A stretch of 64,000 nucleotides of DNA from GCA_000165345.1 CM000435.1:512001-576000; one strand, 5' to 3'. Positions 10,444 through 63,812 are shown, counted from the stretch's first letter. Numbers and translations: made by a program. Notes: a model not told the origin generated them from the sequence alone.

Positions 10444-10486
10444 TATGGCGCAGTGGCGCCTTAGACACGTATTTCATGGCGTCTCG
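10444..10486 (+). promoter_or_regulatory. Candidate promoter module upstream of uL2: ATGGCGC, TGGCGCC, CCTTAGAC and ATGGCGTCTCG
   Basis: Sequence ttATGGCGCagTGGCGCCTTAGACacgtatttcATGGCGTCTCGtag lies 290-330 bp upstream of the ATG at 10775. The 8-mer CCTTAGAC and the 11-mer ATGGCGTCTCG recur exactly at 38121-38140. Confidence 0.4.
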
Positions 10487-10774
10487 TAGTTACCATTTAA
10501 TATTAAATTTCTCATAAAGTGTAAAAAAACTCATCGAGACAAGAATTTAGAACAAACAATAGAAAGTTAAAGTAAAAGTTATATAGAAAGATCATTAACA
10601 AAATAGCAAATTAATTATTTACTACAGAGGCGGGCAAAATATATTAGTCATTAATTTTATAATATTAAAATAAGCTGTTAATTTTTATATCGCATTCACA
10701 AGTGACCTTTGGATTATTAAGCAAACAATTTATCTTTAGACTTTTTTCAGAGGATTCAATTTAGATAGAAACTA

Positions 10775-11560
10775 ATGGGTCGCGTTATTAGAGGTCAGCG
10801 TAAGGGTGCAGGTTCAATTTTCAAGGCTAAGGTTTCCAAGAGAAGAGGACCAGTTAAGCTTCGTGCATTGGACTACATTGAACGTCATGGATATATCAAG
10901 GGTTTAGTAAAGGATATCACTACAGATCCAGGTAGAGGCTGTCCAGTTGCACATGTTTCATTCAGAGACCCTTACAGATACAAAATCAAGAAGGAGCTGA
11001 TGATTGCTGTAGAAGGACTTCATACTGGACAATTTGTATACTGTGGAAAGAATGCAACACTTTCTGTAGGAAACGTTTTACCAGTTGGTCAGATTCCTGA
11101 AGGTACTATTATCTCCTCTTGCGAGGAAAAGGCAGGCGATAGAGGCAAACTCGCTAGAACTTCAGGTACCTATGCAATTATTGTTGGCCAATCTGAAGAC
11201 GGAACAAAGACACGTATTAGACTCCCATCTGGTGCAAGAAAAACTATCAGCTCTCAATCTAGAGCAATTATTGGTATTGTAGCTGCTGGAGGAAGAATTG
11301 ACAAACCAGTTTTGAAGGCAGGTAACAATTATCATAAATACAAAGTCAAGAGAAACTGCTGGCCAAAGGTTAGAGGTGTTTCTATGAACCCAGTAGACCA
11401 TCCTCACGGTGGTGGTAACCACCAACATATTGGTCACCCATCTACTGTTTCAAGAAGTGCACCACCAGGTCAGAAGGTCGGTCTCATTGCTGCCAGAAGA
11501 ACTGGTTTATTACGTGGTGGCCGCAAGACAGCTAAGGATAAGGTAGAAAAGGGAGTTTAA
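10775..11560 (+). CDS. RPL8: 60S ribosomal protein L8 (uL2)
   Basis: 261-aa ATG ORF starting [18 protein letters not shown]. Contains the [14 protein letters not shown] motif. Full-length uL2 similarity. Confidence 0.95.
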
Positions 11561-15258: not shown

Positions 15259-15952
15259 CTAAATAATCCTCTGTTTCCTAAGGAAGTTCCTCATATGAAT
15301 GATTGAAAAATATGAAATAACTGATACTAATGTTAGCTGAATTATAGAGTATATTACAATTCTTTTATTTACACTCAATGCTTGCTTTAAAAACATCTCC
15401 TGTTTCTCAAACTCATATTCTCCTTCGGATACTTGGTTATTTACCTTGCTGATTAGAGAGTTAATAAATTCTTCCACATAATTTGCTTCATCCTTGCTTG
15501 CAATTGAGTCCACGTCAAGATGCTCACTTATGTTACCTGTGTCGATCGAAAGTATCCATTTCATTTGTTCTGATTTAAACCAATTAGAAGAGTCACACCT
15601 AATGCATACCTTGTGATCTCCATCTACTTCTGGAAGGTATGCAACACTACCTTTATGGTCATTTTCATTTACATGCCTACTAAAAACTTCAATATTTTCA
15701 GTGTTTTTGAAAATAACTGTGCAGTCAATACCTAAAGAAAGTATATTTTGCCCAAAAACTAAGATTAAACATACCTAAATTATTCACATTCTCATACTTT
15801 ACATGAATTGGAACAGACTTAGGAACTTCTTGAATGAAGCACTTCTCTGTACCTTCTTGAACATAAAAATATATTGCAGAATACACCCTAATACATTTGA
15901 TGATCAAAAAGAGTATTATTGCCTGAATATTAGCACTTTGAAAAGCCTTCAT
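15259..15952 (-). CDS. p24/emp24/GOLD-domain cargo receptor (TMED family), two exons
   Basis: Exons 15952-15775 and 15731-15259, with a 43-nt GTATGT...ctttag intron; 216 aa. It has a signal peptide, a GOLD-like domain, a coiled region, a C-terminal TM and a short basic tail RNFLRKQRII. Confidence 0.85.
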
Positions 15953-16341
15953 AAGTTTAGGTTCATTAAAAATTATGTCTACAATAGATATTTAGGAATT
16001 GTTATACTATAGTTTTATAGGTATTTTAGAAACTATTTAACCTTAATTACTCTAATCTTATTTGGCCAAGTAGTTGAGGGGAGGTCAAAAATAAAATGTT
16101 CAAAATATATTTAGGAATTCAACAATATGATTAATAAGGGAGAAAAAGTGGGTTAGCAATGCACGCAAACAAATAAGTAGCTTGCGGCTTATTTGATAAT
16201 CTTTATTATTAATAATTATAATCATTCAAACCATACATTTTATTAAAATCGAATTGCGGCAACGCTTTTTATGTAGTAATTTTCTTGCACAAAAGTTTTA
16301 ATTATATTTTAGGGATTATAATTTATTGTGGAAATTAAACA

Positions 16342-16645
16342 ATGCACAGCAACTTTAAGGCAGAGCCTTTTCCATTATTCGTCTCTACTCAAAGTTTTCT
16401 TCCAATATCGATGATTCTCTCGCTTATTTGTAAGTTTGATTGTATTTTTTTAAAAATTTGGTTAAGTATTATTTATGTTTTATTCTCCAGCACTGGTATT
16501 TATATCGTTTTTCATTGTATATGAATTCAGATTCCCAAGATTAAAAAGAAGTTTAAAGGATGAACTAATTGTTTCATTTGCAGGATCACTTACTTTAGGC
16601 TTAGGGCTCACTTTTGCATTATTATCATTTGGTCTATATTTTTAG
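16342..16645 (+). CDS. TMEM258: TMEM258/OST5-like small two-TM subunit (oligosaccharyltransferase accessory), two exons
   Basis: Exons 16342-16429 and 16491-16645, with a 61-nt intron (GTAAGT...ttctccag) and phase 1 kept; 80 aa. The product ...FFIVYEF...LKDELIVSFAGSLTLGLGLTFALLSFGLYF aligns colinearly and end to end with the 79-aa human TMEM258 (...FFVYEV...[29 protein letters not shown], recalled from memory). Confidence 0.7.
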
Positions 16646-17039
16646 GTTTTAGATTTAGTTTCTTTAAGTACTTTATCTCAAGCATTACTGTAATTGTTTG
16701 AATTAAGACAAAATTTAAAAAAATTAACTAAAGCAGAAGATCATAGTTAGAGATTATTATGAAAGCAATACTGAAAAAAAAAGAATTACGAATAAATAAC
16801 ACTTTGATTTAAAAAAAAAAAAGAAAAAAAAAGACCAATAGGGATTTTGCGATAGTATGGGTTTAGAAAATTATAACTCTAGAATATTCCAATCTAACTT
16901 CACCTCTTTTCTATTCGCCGAATATACTTGCATTTGACATTTTAAGCATTAATTTGTCCAATTCATTGTCTTAATAACCGGTAACCCCACACATTGAGAC
17001 AATATGTTAACCAATTATGATTTGTTAAATAGTGCGCTA

Positions 17040-17620
17040 AATTTAGTTAACCTTATTTAATTTCTCCTCACACTGGTGTCTCCCAAAAGTTATGATTTCT
17101 TTCGTCACTTTTTCGATTTTATATTTAACAGGCTCGACTCGGAGTATTATTTATCTCCGATAACCTAAACCGACTTAAACTTTTATAGCGGGGGTTTTTG
17201 GCAAGTTATACCTCGTAGCTAGTTACGTCCCTAATTCTGGACTTAGCTGGTTAAATAAACTAAAATTGCTTTAGCCGTGCTAATACTAAATCTCGCTGGA
17301 TGCTCACAACCCACCTGAATTGGCAGGGTTTAGGTTCGCCCTCTACCAGCAAGTCGTATCTACTTGATACGTTTTTTTCGATAAAACCAATGTATCTCTA
17401 ATTCATATTTAGTGCCAGTACTTCGTAGTTTTTGGAATTGTGTGGGCGTCCTCAGCTTGGACAGTTGGGTGAGTCCGCGCAAAGTCTTTTTAGCCTTGTT
17501 GCTTTTGTACCACTTGACTTGTGCCGGCGATGTTGTGAACGTTTAACAACAGTTTGGAGTTAAAGGATCGTTTTCTGCGCAAATATTTGGAAAAGGGGAA
17601 ATCGCGGGATTTTATTTAGA
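17040..17620 (+). ncRNA. Candidate structured non-coding RNA locus (class unresolved, with telomerase-RNA-like features)
   Basis: No ORF of 60 aa or more in any frame from 16525 to 17739. Local G+C is about 40-53% in 60-nt blocks, against about 30% for the window. Hairpin 17139-17160 is followed by AACCTAAACC (17162-17171). GGTTTAGGTT lies at 17327-17336. Hairpin 17355-17371 is followed by T7. An Sm-like AGTTTTTGG lies at 17427-17435. A terminal hairpin with a GCGG loop lies at 17598-17613. The strand is not established. Confidence 0.3.
17355..17378 (+). terminator. Hairpin plus T7 run (possible Pol III-type or 3'-end signal)
   Basis: CGTATC-tactt-GATACG followed immediately by TTTTTTT. Read directly from the sequence; the function is inferred. 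Confidence 0.2.
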
Positions 17621-17739
17621 TATATTTAATGTAGAAATAAATAAAACAAAATTAGATTTACCAAAAGGGTTTGAATCATTATTTTTACTATGTTAGAGTT
17701 TATGAAGTATAGTTTTATCAGAAAACTGAATAAGCAAAC

Positions 17740-32981: not shown

Positions 32982-33508
32982 ACTCGCATTTTAGCCTGCT
33001 TCTATATTGTTAAAAGCTCCAGGTATATTGTAATTATAAAAAAGAAAGATACTACTTGAGCAATTTTGACTAAAACAAGTCTATTCAAGAAATTAGACTT
33101 TATTCCTATAATTTATTTCCGTATATTTAAGAGTATCCTTATAGTCAATCCAATACCTGTATTTTTGATTGCGGCGGGAACAATTTTGGACATGCTCAGT
33201 AAAATCTAAAAATATTATTTGAAACATATTTTGGAGCAAATAAATATAAATGTAGTCAAATTAACGCACTAAATCGTATAATAAAGCATTAAAGCAATAC
33301 AAACAATTAGGAGAAGGAACAAAATATTCAACTCCTTGTTGAAATGCAACAGAACTATTAAGGAGAGGCACGGCTAATTTTGTAGAGTTTGGATATTATT
33401 AATGGAATTTATGGCAAATTTACAGTAAGGGCTCAATGGTATTTATAAAATTAGTCAAAGTATTCGAATAAGGAAAAGTAAGCGCCCCTAACAAAAATAA
33501 CTAGTGTT

Positions 33509-33520
33509 GAGACGGCGTCT
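33509..33520. promoter_or_regulatory. GAGACGGCGTCT near-palindrome upstream of uS3
   Basis: It lies 285 bp upstream of the ATG at 33804. It shares the GGCGTCT / GAGACG core with the motifs at 10476-10486 and 38130-38140. Confidence 0.3.
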
Positions 33521-33803
33521 TGTGTCTACAAGTGTATTAAATAAGACGATGGCAGCTAGAGACTATGTGATCATTCAATTAAAGGGGAAAACTGAAGAAT
33601 TTAGTTGAATAATTAGTTGAAGTAATTAAATAACATTATTTTTAAATTATTCAAAGGCGCTAACTCAATACTTTTATTCAAAACACTAATTTTTTCTATT
33701 GAATTAATAACAAAGGAATAAGACGCAAGGAAGACCCATTTTCTTTAAAGCAGGAATTTAGGTAGTTTTATTTAAAAATTGGAAAATTCAAATTTAGGCT
33801 AAA

Positions 33804-34469
33804 ATGGCACCTCAGTTAATTTCCAAGAAGCGTAAATTTATTAATGATGGAGTATTTGAGGCAGAATTGAACGAATTCCTCTCTTGTACTCTTGCAGAGG
33901 ATGGTTATGCAGGCGTTGAAGTAAGAGTAACTCCAATTAAGACTGAGATCATCATTAGAGCAACTCGCACACGAGAAGTTCTTGGTGTTAAGGGCCGTAG
34001 AATTCGTGAATTAACTTCTCTTATTCAAAAGAGATTCAACTTTCCAGAGGGAAGCGTCGAACTTTTCGCTGAACGCATTGAGAATAGAGGACTTTGCGCT
34101 ATGGCTCAGGCTGAGTCCTTACGCTATAAGCTACTCAAGGGTGTTGCCGTTAGAAGAGCATGCTATGGTGTATTACGCCACGTTATGGAATCGGGTGCTA
34201 AGGGATGCGAGGTCATTGTTTCTGGTAAACTCAGAGCTCAGAGAGCAAAGAGCATGAAATTCAGAGATGGTTATATGATTGCTACTGGTCAGCCTTTCAG
34301 AGACTTTGTCGACAAGGCAGTTCGTAATGTTATGATGAAACAGGGTGTATTGGGAGTGCAGGTAAAGATTATGCTTCCATATGACCCAGAAGGTAAAACT
34401 GGTCCATCTAAGCCACTACCTGACGCTGTTATGGTTAGAGAACCTAAAGAATACCCCATTAATCAGTAG
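33804..34469 (+). CDS. RPS3: 40S ribosomal protein S3 (uS3)
   Basis: 221-aa ATG ORF starting [21 protein letters not shown] domain and uS3 C-domain are present, with full-length similarity. Confidence 0.95.
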
Positions 34470-37623: not shown

Positions 37624-38022
<399 letters not shown>

Positions 38023-38120
38023 CTAGTTTAAAAACAAACTTTCTATTAACAACTTCAATGATAATTCGTCTTGCTTTGAAGCAATTTACTGTCAAGCCCG
38101 CATCTTTTCCGTGTTGAGTT

Positions 38121-38140
38121 CCTTAGACTATGGCGTCTCG
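38121..38140 (+). promoter_or_regulatory. CCTTAGAC + ATGGCGTCTCG module (exact copy of the uL2 promoter elements)
   Basis: ttCCTTAGACtATGGCGTCTCGgagtctcgtc. It lies 111-130 bp upstream of the ubiquitin-eL40 ATG on the opposite strand and about 670 bp upstream of FCF1 on the same strand. Confidence 0.4.
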
Positions 38141-38805
38141 GAGTCTCGTCTTCTGGCGGGTCGTGCTAAATACCTTTTAAAACTTCTTTCTATAGTAACT
38201 GAGTGATTCTTCTTCTTATTCTAGATCAATTATATTTTGTAATCATTTTAGAATTTATATATTTTGAGACTGCCATCTGCGCATTTATCTATGGCATGAA
38301 TCCCAGGGTTTCATCGGACTTTCATGATGGAAACTGAAACTAAAACTGAGTGTTTATACAAGTTTCACAACTTGTACTAAGCAATATTCATGCCGACATT
38401 AAACATAATTGGTGACATTTTGTTTTACATTGCCACCTCAAAGGAGTAATCAGGACCCAATTATTAATCATTTGAGTTATTGAGGTAGTTATTGCTCCTA
38501 AATATTTTTATTCACTTCATTTGAGAAGCCAGATGTTTATGAGATTTCTTAAAATAGATAGGCCAGTCTAGTTATATGTCTTTACTAATATGTTCAATTC
38601 CGAATGATATTGTTTTCTTCTCTAGGCTAAATTTAATTTCTTCTATTGAACTGCATTCCCGCTCGATCCTTCATACATTTCCTTGACCTGCTGAATATTT
38701 TCTGTAGAAATGATAGATTTATTATTCAAACAAATAGTTGGATAATAAAATAAATTAATGATTATAACTATAGTTCAATTGTATTAACTTCTGTTTTTAA
38801 GCTAA

Positions 38806-39542
38806 ATGGTATGTCAAAAAAGTCCACTGAAGATTTTTATTATTAATTTGCAGGGTGTAGCTAAAAGAACTAGAAAATTTGCAGCGGTGAAACGCATTTT
38901 GAACCCCAATGATAGTAGAGTTAAACAGTAAGTTAACCAAGAAGTTCACTTTCAGCAAATATTTCAATTTCATGTAGAAATAAGCAAAGTAACAAAGTAG
39001 ATGCCCGCAATGATAGTAATGATAAACTAAGAGAAGTGTAAGTTTTAAAACTATTAAACCGTTCTTAATAATATTCCTTTAGGCCAAATGTACCTTCTAG
39101 CTTGTTTTTCAATTATAACAATAATTTGGGCCCTCCCTTCCACATCCTACTCGATACCAATTTTATTAACTTTTCTATACAGCATAAACTAGATATATTT
39201 AAGGGAACAATGGATTGCCTCGTAGCTAAGTGTATCCCTTGCATTACTGATTGTGTAATAGGGGAACTCGAAAAGATGGGTCACCGTTACAACTTGGCTT
39301 TGAAACTAGCTAGAGATCCCAGATTCAAACGTCTGCACTGTCTGCATAAAGGGACTTATGCGGACGATTGCATAGTGCAAAGAGTAACTGAACATAAATG
39401 TTACATAGTGGGAACGAATGATACCGAACTAAAGAGGCGCATACGTAGAATACCAGGCGTCCCAATAATGTATGTTACCAACCATAAATATTCGATTGAG
39501 AGACTACCGGAATCACTAGTCTCTGTTCCGCTGAAAAAGTAG
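38806..39542 (+). CDS. FCF1: rRNA-processing PIN-domain protein FCF1, four exons; exon 1 is the ATG only
   Basis: Exons 38806-38808, 38854-38927, 38978-39037 and 39083-39542, giving 198 aa. Introns are 45, 50 and 45 nt (GTATGT, GTAAGT, GTAAGT). The spliced product M|GVAKRTRKFAAVKRILNP...REVPNVPSSLFFNYNNNLGPPFHILLDTNFINFSI... is colinear with the 198-aa human FCF1 (recalled from memory). Confidence 0.85.
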
Positions 39543-52558: not shown

Positions 52559-53131
52559 TGATAAAACTTTCAATAATTAATCAGAGTTCAATTTTTAATA
52601 AGCGAAAATATCTTACCAGTTATTAATGCGCATTTTCTTAAATATTTAATCTTTGCGATTTTTTTTTTCCTGACAAATGTATTCCTTGTTCTCATAGAAT
52701 ATTTTTTTATTAAGCGGTGAATGATAAGAATTTCAAATTTTCAAGTTAATTAAAACTTTTAAATTAGTAGGCAGACTTAACTTTTCTTCAAAAGCGATTT
52801 CCCCCACATCATTAAGGTTCAAAATTGTGACTTTTCATTGTTTTATATTTACAATATAAATCTTTGCCACACCAATTTTGTTAATTAATTAGAGTAACGA
52901 CTAATTGTAATAATTTACCTTCATTTTTATAAATAGTTGAAACAAATTTTACCTTTACGCAATTAAGCTTTGCAAAAATTCTATTTTTCGTATATCGTTT
53001 TTATTAAAAAAAAAACTTGGCGGCCATAAATGTTTTGATCTTTAATTTGAAGCAGCTCAAATCATTCAAAATTCGTATTAACAAAAAGAATTATTTATAA
53101 TGCTGATATGAATGTCATTTATTGATCTTTT

Positions 53132-54529: not shown

Positions 54530-54816
54530 CTAATAAAAGAACTTCAATACGTTTTAGATGATTAAGTAATAGTTTATATGACTGAATGGTAGATTGAAAT
54601 CTTTTCTTAAATATTATAGTTCATTCAGACATTGGAATTTAATGCTCAGGTGCATGTAGTTACCTTAGAGCTCACATTAGGCGCTTACCCCACACATTGC
54701 ATATTAAGTTTTCTAAAATATTTGTTTTTCGAAGGCAGCGGAAAAAAATCATTAAAAAACATTATTTATTTTGATAGTTATATAAATATATTTATTCTTA
54801 AGATTGTTTTCTAACA

Positions 54817-61459: not shown

Positions 61460-61807
61460 TCACTCTTCACCTGCTTCGTTACTAATATTGAAGTACCTAA
61501 CTTCATAGGAACCTTTGCTTGTTGCAACTACACGTAGAAAGTCTCTAATTTGTTGTTTCTTAAGGTATTTCTTAGTTAGATACTTTAGGTATCTCTTTGA
61601 CATTGGAACTTCGCTCAATACAGTAATACGACCCTTTTGGCGAGAGATCTGAATCTTCGTGCCTAGCTGTCCGCACTTACCATCCACTTTTATGCGATCA
61701 TGGAAGAACTTCTCGAGCCCAGATGCATCGATGATATTATCTTGCATAGGAGCAGTGCAGTCAACAATGAAACGTTGAGTTTTATGAGCCTTTGTTATAG
61801 GAGCCAT
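61460..61807 (-). CDS. RPL22: 60S ribosomal protein L22 (eL22)
   Basis: 115 aa from the first ATG (the track start at 61837 is TTG). [20 protein letters not shown]...[14 protein letters not shown]...[12 protein letters not shown]...VRYFNI matches eL22 over its full length. Confidence 0.9.
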
Positions 61808-62429
61808 TTTATCTCTATAATCAACTTGAAAATGCAATGATAATAATTTTAGTAAAATCTCTATAAAAAATTATCCGACAAGTTTTGTACAATTCTGTAT
61901 AGGCAGCGAAATTTTTCACTACCAAAGCTTAATTCATTAATTTGATATAAATAACTATTATATTCCATTTAATTAATTAATAGTTAGCCGCTATACATTA
62001 ATCTCGTCTCTAATTATTTTTGCGCCATTTATTGTTCAACTTTTAATTATTAAAATAAGACTTTTTGTTATATTTATAGACAAAAACGTGGTGGTACCCA
62101 TAACTTGGGCGCCTTAATATATCTGAATAGTAGTTTATGTTGGGGGAAATCATCATAGGCAAATTGAATATTTTTGAGATTCCAAGTTAAAATTATAAAA
62201 TTTGGATAAGACATTCGTTTTACAAAGAAATTTGGTTCGTATTTTTATATCAGCGTATGAATCTGTATATGAACAAAATTCGTGAATGCAGTATTTTTAT
62301 TTCCAACTTGATGAAGAGTTGAATGCTTTCAAGTATTAGAATATAGCTATCCAATTTTATCCGCATTAATCTCGGAGTTGCAACAATTATTATCTTGTAT
62401 ATTAACAATATTTAAGCTCTCTTTTCAAA

Positions 62430-63812
62430 ATGTTAAACATTCCAAGTACGGTTGACGACCCTAACTATCGTTACAAGATGCCTAAATTGGTATCAAAAAT
62501 TGAAGGCCGCGGAAATGGTATTAGAACGAAAATTGTTAATATGGCAGATATTGCTAGATCGCTTAAAAGACCACCTGCATACCCTACGAAGTTTTTTGGA
62601 TGCGAACTTGGTGCATTAAGCAAATGGGAGGATAAGGAAGAAAAAAGCATCGTAAACGGAGCACATCAACAGAATGATCTCCAACGGTTAATGGACAAGT
62701 TTATTCAAATGTATGTCCTATGCCCAAATTGTGAGCTGCCTGAGATTGACATAATTGTTAAGAAGGAGCGTGTTAGTTGCAAATGTAATGCTTGTGGATA
62801 TATTGGAGCATTGGATAACAATCATAAAATCACCACATATATTTCAAAGAACCCTCCAGGTGGCGTTGAAAGTACAATGGGAAGTAAAAACAAAAAGGAA
62901 AGGAGGGAGAGAGATAAGGATCGCAGTTCTGAGGGCTGCAATAATAGTAATGGCTCTACAGCAGCTGATAATGAGAAACCGTCTAAACATAAATCTAAAA
63001 AGGCAAGTAAGAAGAGCAGCAAAAAATCTCCCCATGAGTTAGATATATTTGAGAAGGATGTCTTGACATTTGAAAGTCCAGAGATAGTCGATGTTATTGA
63101 ACGCCTAACCAATTTCATGCAAAAGAATGAGGAGGTAAGTCCCGAAGACTTTTTTTCCGAGTTACGGGTCTTGCAAGTATCACAAGATTTTGATGAATTT
63201 ATGAGGTTTTCTGTATTATTAGCTGTGCTATTTGGATTGAAAGATCCAATTGATCCAAAAGTATTTAAATTAAGGATCCCTTATATTTCAAAAGCCGTAG
63301 AGGGTTCGTTAAGGTCAAATGCAATTATTTCTATATTTGAATCATATTGTGTTGAAAAGAATCCAAGCACATTAGCAACATATCCATATTTAATACAACA
63401 GCTGTATGATGCTGATATTTTATCCGAGAAAGTGATCTTGAAATATTATCAAAAAGATGCTCCAACATCTTGGGTATCTGGATGTTCTACCCAAGACACA
63501 TTTGAAAAGGCTAAAAAATCTTGTGAGCCGTTTGTCGATTGGTTGCTCGATGGTAGCAACGATGAATCTGATCTGAGCGATGAAAACAATGATGATTATG
63601 ATACAAATAACTCCGATATTGACGAAGACGATTCTCATTCGCCTGTTAGGAGCTCTCGAGTAAAGGTCAAAAGCTTGAATCTTTCAGAAAAACTTGATAG
63701 TTATAAGTTTGAAAGTTGCTCTGGTTCTGAGGATGACGGATCTCTAACTAAAAACGTGGAGAATTCTCAGTCTCAGAATAGTGACTCTGACCTTGATATT
63801 GACAATATCTGA
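62430..63812 (+). CDS. EIF5: Translation initiation factor 5 (eIF5)
   Basis: 460-aa ATG ORF. N-terminal eIF2beta/eIF5 domain (DPNYRYKMPKLVSKIEGRGNGIRTKIVNM, zinc ribbon CPNCELPE...CKCNACG), a basic linker, and a W2/eIF5C domain with an acidic tail. Confidence 0.9.
   Translation: MLNIPSTVDDPNYRYKMPKLVSKIEGRGNGIRTKIVNMADIARSLKRPPAYPTKFFGCELGALSKWEDKEEKSIVNGAHQQNDLQRLMDKFIQMYVLCPNCELPEIDIIVKKERVSCKCNACGYIGALDNNHKITTYISKNPPGGVESTMGSKNKKERRERDKDRSSEGCNNSNGSTAADNEKPSKHKSKKASKKSSKKSPHELDIFEKDVLTFESPEIVDVIERLTNFMQKNEEVSPEDFFSELRVLQVSQDFDEFMRFSVLLAVLFGLKDPIDPKVFKLRIPYISKAVEGSLRSNAIISIFESYCVEKNPSTLATYPYLIQQLYDADILSEKVILKYYQKDAPTSWVSGCSTQDTFEKAKKSCEPFVDWLLDGSNDESDLSDENNDDYDTNNSDIDEDDSHSPVRSSRVKVKSLNLSEKLDSYKFESCSGSEDDGSLTKNVENSQSQNSDSDLDIDNI

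Follow-up and report, generated by a model that had tools for sequence, protein, structure and literature searches.

A GAGACG-type element conserved upstream of ribosomal-protein genes in Cryptosporidium

A short element with the core GCGTCTC/GAGACG stands upstream of all four ribosomal-protein (RP) genes in a window of 64,000 nucleotides from Cryptosporidium parvum chromosome 7, and in the DNA examined this element is real, conserved and RP-specific. The core reads (T)GGCGTCTC(G), or GAGACG(C/G)C on the other strand, the reverse complement of the 8-mer GGCGTCTC being GAGACGCC; GGCGTCTC or a close variant of it precedes each of uL2, uS3, ubiquitin-eL40 (Ub-eL40) and eL22, in the form of GAGACGAG at eL22 and of a palindrome at uS3. 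The proposal of the initial annotation that RP promoters have a cis-element in common is thereby borne out. It is suggested here, with a probability of roughly 0.7, that the core is an RP-gene-specific promoter element kept across Cryptosporidium, where it would act as the orientation-independent site of a putative RP transcription factor.

Conservation and gene specificity of the core

The window is about 32% G+C and its genes are densely packed; those relevant here are collected in Table 1 together with the sequence features of their spacers, the cgd7 names for uL2, uS3, L40, L22 and FEN1 (cgd7_2140) being taken from a published supplement. Syntenic loci were located with CCDC47, FEN1 and eIF5 as anchors and compared in C. 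ubiquitum, C. canis, C. felis, C. ryanae, C. serpentis, C. bovis and C. muris, and additional sequences were available from C. meleagridis-like and C. hominis-like sources. Gene order is kept throughout the compared Cryptosporidium loci. The FEN1 protein encoded in the window shows 100% identity to that of C. parvum Iowa II, and the uL2 spacer is identical in sequence in assembly GCA_035232765.1. In all that follows, the independent genes are the four RP genes, while their orthologues count as non-independent observations.

Table 1. Genes of the window considered here and sequence features in their spacers (positions from the first nucleotide of the window)
Feature	Position	Strand	Remarks
uL2 (cgd7_2110, L8/L2)	10775-11560	+	Pfam
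uS3 (cgd7_2250, S3)	33804-34469	+	Pfam
Ub-eL40 (cgd7_2280, L40)	37624-38010	-	Pfam
FCF1	39102-39542, plus upstream exon	+	Pfam
eIF5A	39765-40259	+	Pfam
eL22 (cgd7_2420, L22)	ATG at 61807	-	Pfam
eIF5	62430-63812	+	Pfam
ATGGCGC, extra E2F-like half site, uL2	10445-10451	+	Lineage-specific
GTGGCGCC, E2F-like, uL2	10453-10460		GTGGCGGC in C. ryanae; published E2F-like motif [C/G]GCGC[G/C]
TTAGACACGTA block with TAGACACGTA, uL2	10461-10471	+	Resembles FIRE motif 18 (WTAGACR)
Core TGGCGTCTCG, uL2	10477-10486	+	Sense to uL2, 289-298 bp before ATG
CGAGACAAG, second GAGAC(A) copy, uL2	10535-10543	+	Opposite-facing, ~55 bp downstream of core
GGCGGGC, E2F-like (motif 4 type), uL2 leader	10629-10635	+	Conserved in C. 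meleagridis, C. canis, C. ryanae
AAGCGCCCC, E2F-like, uS3	33480-33488		~30 bp upstream of palindrome
Palindrome GAGACG-G-CGTCT, uS3	33509-33520		284-295 bp before uS3 ATG
GTGTCT, flanking GTCT-type repeat, uS3	33522-33527	+	Partly conserved (TGTGTCT, GAGTCT or TGTACCT)
AAGACG, AGAC copy near palindrome, uS3	33543-33548
GAGACT, AGAC copy near palindrome, uS3	33559-33564
CCTTAGAC, Ub-eL40	38121-38128	+	Lineage-specific here
Core TGGCGTCTCG, Ub-eL40	38131-38140	+	Antisense to Ub-eL40, 121-130 bp from ATG
GGAGTCTCGTCTTC, degenerate tandem copies, Ub-eL40	38140-38153	+
CTGGCGGG, E2F-like, Ub-eL40	38153-38160	+	Abuts repeats; TTTTGGCGGT in other species
GAGACGAGA, eL22	62002-62010	-	Sense to eL22, ~195-203 bp from ATG
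GGGCGCCTTA, E2F-like, eL22/eIF5 spacer	62107-62116

In the syntenic loci of eight other Cryptosporidium species, no block but the core is invariant before uS3 and Ub-eL40: AGACG-S-CGTCT is the sole invariant run before uS3 (six species, 58% mean column identity) and TGGCGTCTC the sole one before Ub-eL40 (six species, 49% mean identity). An unbiased footprint, in which the 8-mers present in every species compared were collected spacer by spacer, recovered AGACG[GC]CG and ACG[GC]CGTC for uS3, and GAGACGCC, AGACGCCA and one word without AGACG, AACTTACT, for all six species at Ub-eL40. With four species compared in each case, GAGACGCC is the only 8-mer outside pure A/T sequence common to the uL2 spacers and AGACGAGA the only common 8-mer of any kind in those of eL22. 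AGACG-containing words are thus the only non-A/T shared 8-mers in the uL2, uS3 and eL22 spacers and two of the three in that of Ub-eL40, against an average of 0.15-1.4 shared 8-mers in shuffled spacers. A conserved AGACG word was found in 4/4 RP spacers and in none of the 13 non-RP spacers of the same loci, and a conserved copy of the core was also looked for across species at eIF5A, where there is none. All 13 copies of GGCGTCTC in a sample of 291 kb fall in RP spacers, which make up 5.9% of its bases, as do 17 of the 19 copies of GGCGTCT; within the window, the three copies of the latter are all upstream of RP genes. Strong purifying selection acts on the core, in contrast to the diverging spacer around it. 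Since the eL22 variant GAGACGAG is without the GCC extension and C. muris has GAGACA, the part that is recognized may be only GAGAC(G/A).

The surroundings of the core differ from gene to gene. At uL2, C. meleagridis, C. canis, C. ryanae and C. serpentis also have GGCGTCTC, 272-348 bp before the ATG, and the GAGACA downstream of it is invariant in 5/5 aligned species. Conservation of the neighbouring GTGGCG(C/G)C and of TAGACACGTA extends out to C. ryanae; the TTAGACACGTA block is the same in C. meleagridis and C. canis, becomes TCTAGACACGTA in C. ryanae and has TTTAGAGACAGC at the equivalent place in C. serpentis, and the ATGGCGC at 10445 has GTGGCGC as its counterpart in three close relatives and none in C. 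canis. The uS3 palindrome is perfect, with G or C as its central base according to the species, and lies 264-299 bp before the ATG; AAGAC[GA]ATG recurs in the uS3 upstream region of four species. At Ub-eL40, most other species have a clean array with a phase of 8 bp, GGCGTCTC-GACGTCTC-AGTCT followed by TTTTGGCGG, in place of the degenerate copies of C. parvum. C. parvum, C. felis and C. bovis all have the eL22 form GAGACGAG, in place of which C. muris shows GAGACAGG. When AGAC homotypic clusters were counted in 80-bp windows, the uS3 promoter came first with five copies, which is not significant under a Markov null that itself reaches 4-5.

E2F-like sites accompany the core in all four spacers. 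GCGCC, GGCGC or CCGCC is found 31-55 bp from the uS3 palindrome in 6/6 species, the site next to the Ub-eL40 repeats lies 9-24 bp from the core in 6/6 species, and C. bovis and C. muris retain the GGCGCC of the eL22/eIF5 spacer, at 299-333 bp from the eIF5 ATG. The GGCGCC/GGCGGG neighbours of the core are the known E2F-like motif; GGCGCC/E2F-like motifs of Cryptosporidium had been mentioned in the initial annotation. Such sites are intergenic throughout the window (11/11 for TGGCGC, of which seven lie outside RP spacers, and 4/4 for GGCGGG). The further idea of a fixed E2F plus GAGACG module fares less well: E2F-like pentamers are no closer to the core than random positions, their median distance being 28 bp and random positions in the same spacer being as close in 30% of cases (combined p = 0.08), so that a composite module is at most weakly supported.

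The sequences from which this work started are all present to within one base, namely TGGCGCCTTAGAC (10454-10466), CCTTAGAC (10459-10466) and ATGGCGTCTCG (10476-10486) upstream of uL2, CCTTAGAC-t-ATGGCGTCTCG (38121-38140) in the Ub-eL40/FCF1 spacer, GAGACGGCGTCT (33509-33520) upstream of uS3, and, on the minus strand of the eL22 spacer, GAGACGAG (62003-62010) and ATGGCGC (62022-62028); the ATGGCGC upstream of uL2 is likewise there, but its start had been placed one base away from its position at 10445-10451. It had been argued that an exact 11-mer and 8-mer shared by two short spacers are very unlikely by chance, and this argument is weaker than claimed. The 11-mer ATGGCGTCTCG does occur twice in the window against 0.00 occurrences expected for that word. 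Under a look-elsewhere null, however, in which the best word common to any two of 33 spacers was taken over all k-mers in Markov-shuffled spacers, it is ordinary (7.70 log10 units against a mean of 7.99 for the null best), and the best shared word actually observed among the 33 spacers is not ATGGCGTCTCG but another, G-box-like 13-mer. With the neighbouring 8-mer in the same order added, an analytic estimate gives P ~0.004-0.03. CGTCTC is present in 4/4 RP spacers of the window versus 3/29 others (p = 8.6e-4, uncorrected), and among the 1837 six-mers compared between RP and other window spacers none survives correction, CGTCTC holding rank 2. The top-ranked six-mer, AATGCG, is not conserved across species. 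Window-only statistics fail multiple-test correction, and the window alone is therefore suggestive and not conclusive; it is because of its cross-species conservation that the core is held to be real.

Two details of the original proposal fare less well. An exact bipartite form of 8-mer plus 11-mer is not supported, since CCTTAGAC, conserved upstream of uL2 but not of Ub-eL40, stands beside the Ub-eL40 core only in C. parvum and C. ubiquitum; the TTAGAC in question is absent there from C. canis, C. felis, C. ryanae and C. serpentis. The supposed link to ribosome biogenesis is not upheld either, given that the FCF1 coding start, at ~38806-38854, is ~670 bp from the motif, with the Ub-eL40 ATG ~120 bp away, and that eIF5A is without a conserved copy.

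Relation to catalogued motifs

The core extends an orphan motif that is already catalogued, defines it more sharply and validates it by its evolution; it does not constitute a new class. A FIRE analysis of C. parvum grouped motifs 10 (RMGACG), 17 (VYGTCBC) and 18 (WTAGACR) as 'Unknown set 1', with the remark that they are unlike any known element (Oberstaller et al. 2013, PMC3734150). Organism and core are the same as here, GCGTCTC fitting VYGTCBC, GAGACG fitting RMGACG and TTAGACA fitting WTAGACR. In that work cluster 6 was the only expression cluster with an over-representation of motif 17 (33 genes, 63% of them with the motif, Z 8.5, robustness 10/10; PMC3734150). This RP/translation-rich cluster includes cgd7_2280 (membership 0.97) and cgd7_2420 (0.72), so that the genome-wide enrichment test proposed by the initial annotation has in effect already been published. 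The other two RP genes were assigned to cluster 35 (cgd7_2110) and cluster 20 (cgd7_2250), both RP-containing, and FIRE called no motif 17 there. Matches to VYGTCBC are present upstream of uL2 at 10479 (GCGTCTC), of Ub-eL40 at 38133 (GCGTCTC) and of uS3 at 33509 on the minus strand (CCGTCTC), and the eL22 copy TCGTCTC is no strict match. Whereas the published motif 17 is a degenerate 7-mer from one algorithm, without conservation, architecture or position, the element described here is extended to (T)GGCGTCTC(G), is invariant in the genus, takes palindromic and tandem forms and is found at RP genes of clusters 20 and 35 as well. With regard to candidate binding proteins, 'Unknown set 1' has been listed among non-AP2 binding motifs (Oberstaller 2014) and no C. 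parvum AP2 domain was found to bind this motif family in the published protein-binding arrays; a search of the Plasmodium array paper for an AP2 domain binding AGAC/GTCT gave nothing usable. The set is omitted from the motif table of a 2025 review, and a 2025 ATAC-seq preprint has E2F and poly-T motifs only.

A second resemblance is to the coccidian WGAGACG element, known from SAG1 and other Toxoplasma promoters. It has also been reported as GCGTCDCW (MICA), which enhances the Mic8 promoter, and as GAGACGC, which is enriched in tachyzoite-specific promoters (for the three forms together: Soldati & Boothroyd 1995; Mercier 1996; Mullapudi 2009; Hehl 2015), and AGAGACG was recovered again in 2024, still as an orphan motif. 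The Toxoplasma and Cryptosporidium elements have an identical GAGACG(C) core, are orphan elements found on either strand and often occur in multiple copies. The WGAGACG heptamer is exact in uS3 (TGAGACG), eL22 (AGAGACG) and several orthologues; uL2 and Ub-eL40 of C. parvum read CGAGACG / GCGTCTCG, with C at the W position. Unlike the Cryptosporidium core, however, the Toxoplasma element marks SAG1, GRA, microneme and tachyzoite-specific genes and not RP genes, for which Toxoplasma uses TRP-1/TRP-2 and AP2XII-8. On sequence, then, the link between the two is one of resemblance only.

Other comparisons are of a more general kind. The Cryptosporidium E2F/DP sites (TGGCGCCA, TTTGGCGGG) are found in the same four spacers, 9-55 bp from the core in most species, but their own core is GCGC or GCGG and they occur widely in promoters at large. 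Toxoplasma TRP-2/AP2XII-8 and the Plasmodium G-box follow the same logic of one element for an RP regulon, with unrelated sequences, and represent a functional analogy only. Yeast Rap1 sites and the fission-yeast HomolD box are likewise short elements common to RP promoters, and their sequences are also unrelated.

A broader scenario may be put forward as speculation, and we consider it rather improbable: GAGACG(C) would be an ancient apicomplexan element read by one putative non-AP2 protein in both Cryptosporidium and coccidia, with that protein as dedicated RP driver and start selector in Cryptosporidium. In Toxoplasma the element would have been redeployed to genes for surface, dense-granule and microneme proteins at the time when control of the RP genes passed to AP2XII-8/TGCATGCA. 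In view of the identity of the core with Toxoplasma WGAGACG, an orphan since 1995, a factor identified in one parasite would probably account for the element of the other as well, and its discovery would provide a concrete example of a regulon rewired inside the phylum. From a practical perspective, a sharply defined, genus-invariant site of 8-10 bp with natural palindromic and tandem forms is a practical affinity bait and mutagenesis target which makes the RP-regulon factor of Cryptosporidium directly approachable, and mutagenesis of the core in its promoters is feasible now that C. parvum can be transfected.

Mode of action and alternative readings

The core is sense to uL2, antisense to Ub-eL40, palindromic at uS3 and sense to eL22 as GAGACGAGA, and it comes as a perfect palindrome (uS3), as a tandem with 8-bp phase (Ub-eL40) and as a single copy (eL22). 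The use of both orientations, together with the palindromic and tandem forms, speaks for a protein that reads the element in DNA and can dimerize or bind in arrays, and speaks against an RNA signal. The core is accordingly pictured as a site in DNA for a putative sequence-specific factor binding as a dimer or in arrays, which would work in either orientation, in promoters that also hold E2F/DP sites, and would bring about common RP expression. In addition, it may stand immediately before the transcription start and contribute to placing that start, as the WGAGACG repeats of Toxoplasma SAG1 do.

With respect to position, the ATG-free run before the start codon is on average 187 nt long in RP genes and 59 nt long in 22 others (Mann-Whitney p = 0.0035), and the ATG-free leader of RP orthologues a mean of 165 nt against 80 nt in the antisense control. 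In 4/4 RP genes of C. parvum, 0-75 bp separate the core from the 5' edge of the leader downstream of it, which is free of upstream ATGs (uATGs), and since it is just 5' of this leader it may be promoter-proximal, a placement deduced from uATG depletion only. A literature search for mapped start sites of these RP genes gave nothing usable, and the sigma-70 promoter and terminator scan is irrelevant to a eukaryote. A 5'-UTR intron between motif and ATG is unsupported, the splice signals of the candidates (GTAAAA...TTTTTTCAG in uL2; GT sites in uS3) not being conserved in C. canis, C. felis and C. ryanae.

The alternative closest to this picture is that the element belongs to the core promoter and serves in start-site selection, of the type of the 27-bp repeats of Toxoplasma SAG1 or of fission-yeast HomolD, and not an upstream activator. 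We regard this as possible but doubtful, and it overlaps the RP-factor reading more than it excludes it. [quoted passage not shown] On the other hand, the C. serpentis Ub-eL40 motif lies 100 bp further out, and blocks nearer to the ATG could equally mark the start (GTGACCTTTGG in uL2; an AGACC/T-tract at about -60 in uS3). It is unlikely that the core is a mere variant of the E2F/DP site (a TTTGGCG half site), the RP genes being simply E2F targets. Many copies do combine a T-rich 5' flank with GGCG (TTTTGGCGTCTC in C. canis; TTTTTGGCGTCTC in C. ryanae uL2), and E2F-like motifs of the form [C/G]GCGC[G/C] have been published as over-represented upstream of C. parvum RP genes (Oberstaller 2013, PMC3734150). 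The invariant positions of the core nevertheless extend through GTCTC, outside this consensus, and GGCGTC is without the GCGC core, while the eL22 copy TCTCGTCTC and the downstream GAGACA of uL2 have no GGCG at all and the uS3 palindrome is centred between two AGACG arms. Moreover, canonical E2F-like sites stand separately beside each copy of the core: a GCGC or GGCGGG core with a T/A-rich flank characterizes the sites at 10453-10460, 38153-60 and 62107-13 and not GGCGTCTC. Finally, GAGACG is present in Toxoplasma, yet E2F/DP is reported to be absent from apicomplexans other than Cryptosporidium.

The two remaining readings carry far less weight. A translational control signal in the mRNA leader, comparable to the 5' TOP/TCT element of animals, would suit the long uATG-free leaders of RP genes, and the motif might fall inside the transcript; but the sense strand has GGCGUCUC in uL2 and GAGACGCC/GAGACGAG in Ub-eL40/eL22, so that CGTCTC is on the sense strand in the former and the antisense strand in the latter two, which is not the behaviour of a TCT/5' TOP element. 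An RNA element would not be kept on opposite strands, and palindromic and tandem forms suit DNA binding, which makes this reading highly improbable. The least credible of all is that the likeness between the copies reflects chance or slow neutral decay with no function. The data of the window alone would allow for it, with the shared 11-mer inside the look-elsewhere null and the six-mer enrichment failing correction, but it is already contradicted by the conservation data: the core is the only invariant block at 49-58% identity, reaching the gastric species C. serpentis and C. muris, and recurs in four unlinked promoters with 0/13 among the controls, and the published genome-wide enrichment is independent of the present analysis.

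Other conserved sequences in the window

Several further sequences were observed in the course of the comparison. Blocks closer to the start codons include GTGACCTTTGG at 10702-10712 (-63 to -73 of the uL2 ATG), conserved out to C. ryanae, and a comparable AGACC-plus-T-tract block ~60 bp before the uS3 ATG, both of which are possible start-site regions. In C. parvum, C. ubiquitum, C. canis and C. felis, the uS3 leader at 33550-33609 has an upstream ATG immediately after a conserved AAGAC(G/A). The ORFs that begin with this ATG are short (9-19 codons) and have a weak M-x-x-x-D-Y start; the feature may represent a uORF or a mere DNA-level block. More multi-species blocks are present in the Ub-eL40/FCF1 spacer at 38271-38296, 38387-38416 and 38399-38505, among them TGCCAT...ATGGCA and TTATGCCGAnATTAAACATAATTGGT, and this spacer also gives a sub-threshold H/ACA snoRNA-like match (snoU109, 25.8 bits, E 0.13); these blocks may belong to a small RNA or to the FCF1 promoter. 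Two of the 13 control spacers hold other conserved motifs, namely the G-box-like TGTCGTGGGGT at 42271-42281 on the minus strand, in the divergent spacer between the AAA-ATPase and alpha/beta-hydrolase genes (conserved in 5/5 species), and the E2F-like TTGGCGGC at 53017-53024 upstream of CDC50 (conserved in C. felis and C. bovis). The most informative word common to two spacers of the window is ACCCCACACATTG, at 16984-16996 and 54687-54699, whose reverse complement is G-box-like. As regards gene structure, FCF1 has an upstream coding exon at 38806/38854-38926 (…GVAKRTRKFAAVKRILNPNDSRVK) with a GTAAGT donor at 38927, the 146-aa ORF at 39102 being its second exon only, and the p24/EMP24 gene at 15259-15952 (minus strand) shows up in the ORF list only as small ORFs because it is split into two exons (15259-15564 and 15725-15952).

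RNA-family scans of the window, of 16000-17739 and of 38011-39101 returned no match other than the sub-threshold H/ACA-like one, and no tRNA was found in the window scan. Within the ORF-free stretch 16000-17739, the segment 17128-17378 (plus strand), itself without an Rfam match, qualifies as a candidate for a small non-coding RNA. C. canis and C. ryanae conserve it, and 10-mers of its 3' block also match C. serpentis, where no full orthologue was located. There is little covariation across the three sequences compared. The candidate has a conserved 36-nt block (17327-17362) and, on its 3' side, the hairpin CGTATC...GATACG, after which come seven T in the manner of RNA polymerase III transcripts. 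Also present in it is CCGATAACCTAAACC. Its AACCTAAACC is invariant, and we take this to be the complement of 1.5 telomere repeats (TTTAGG); the candidate could be the telomerase RNA.
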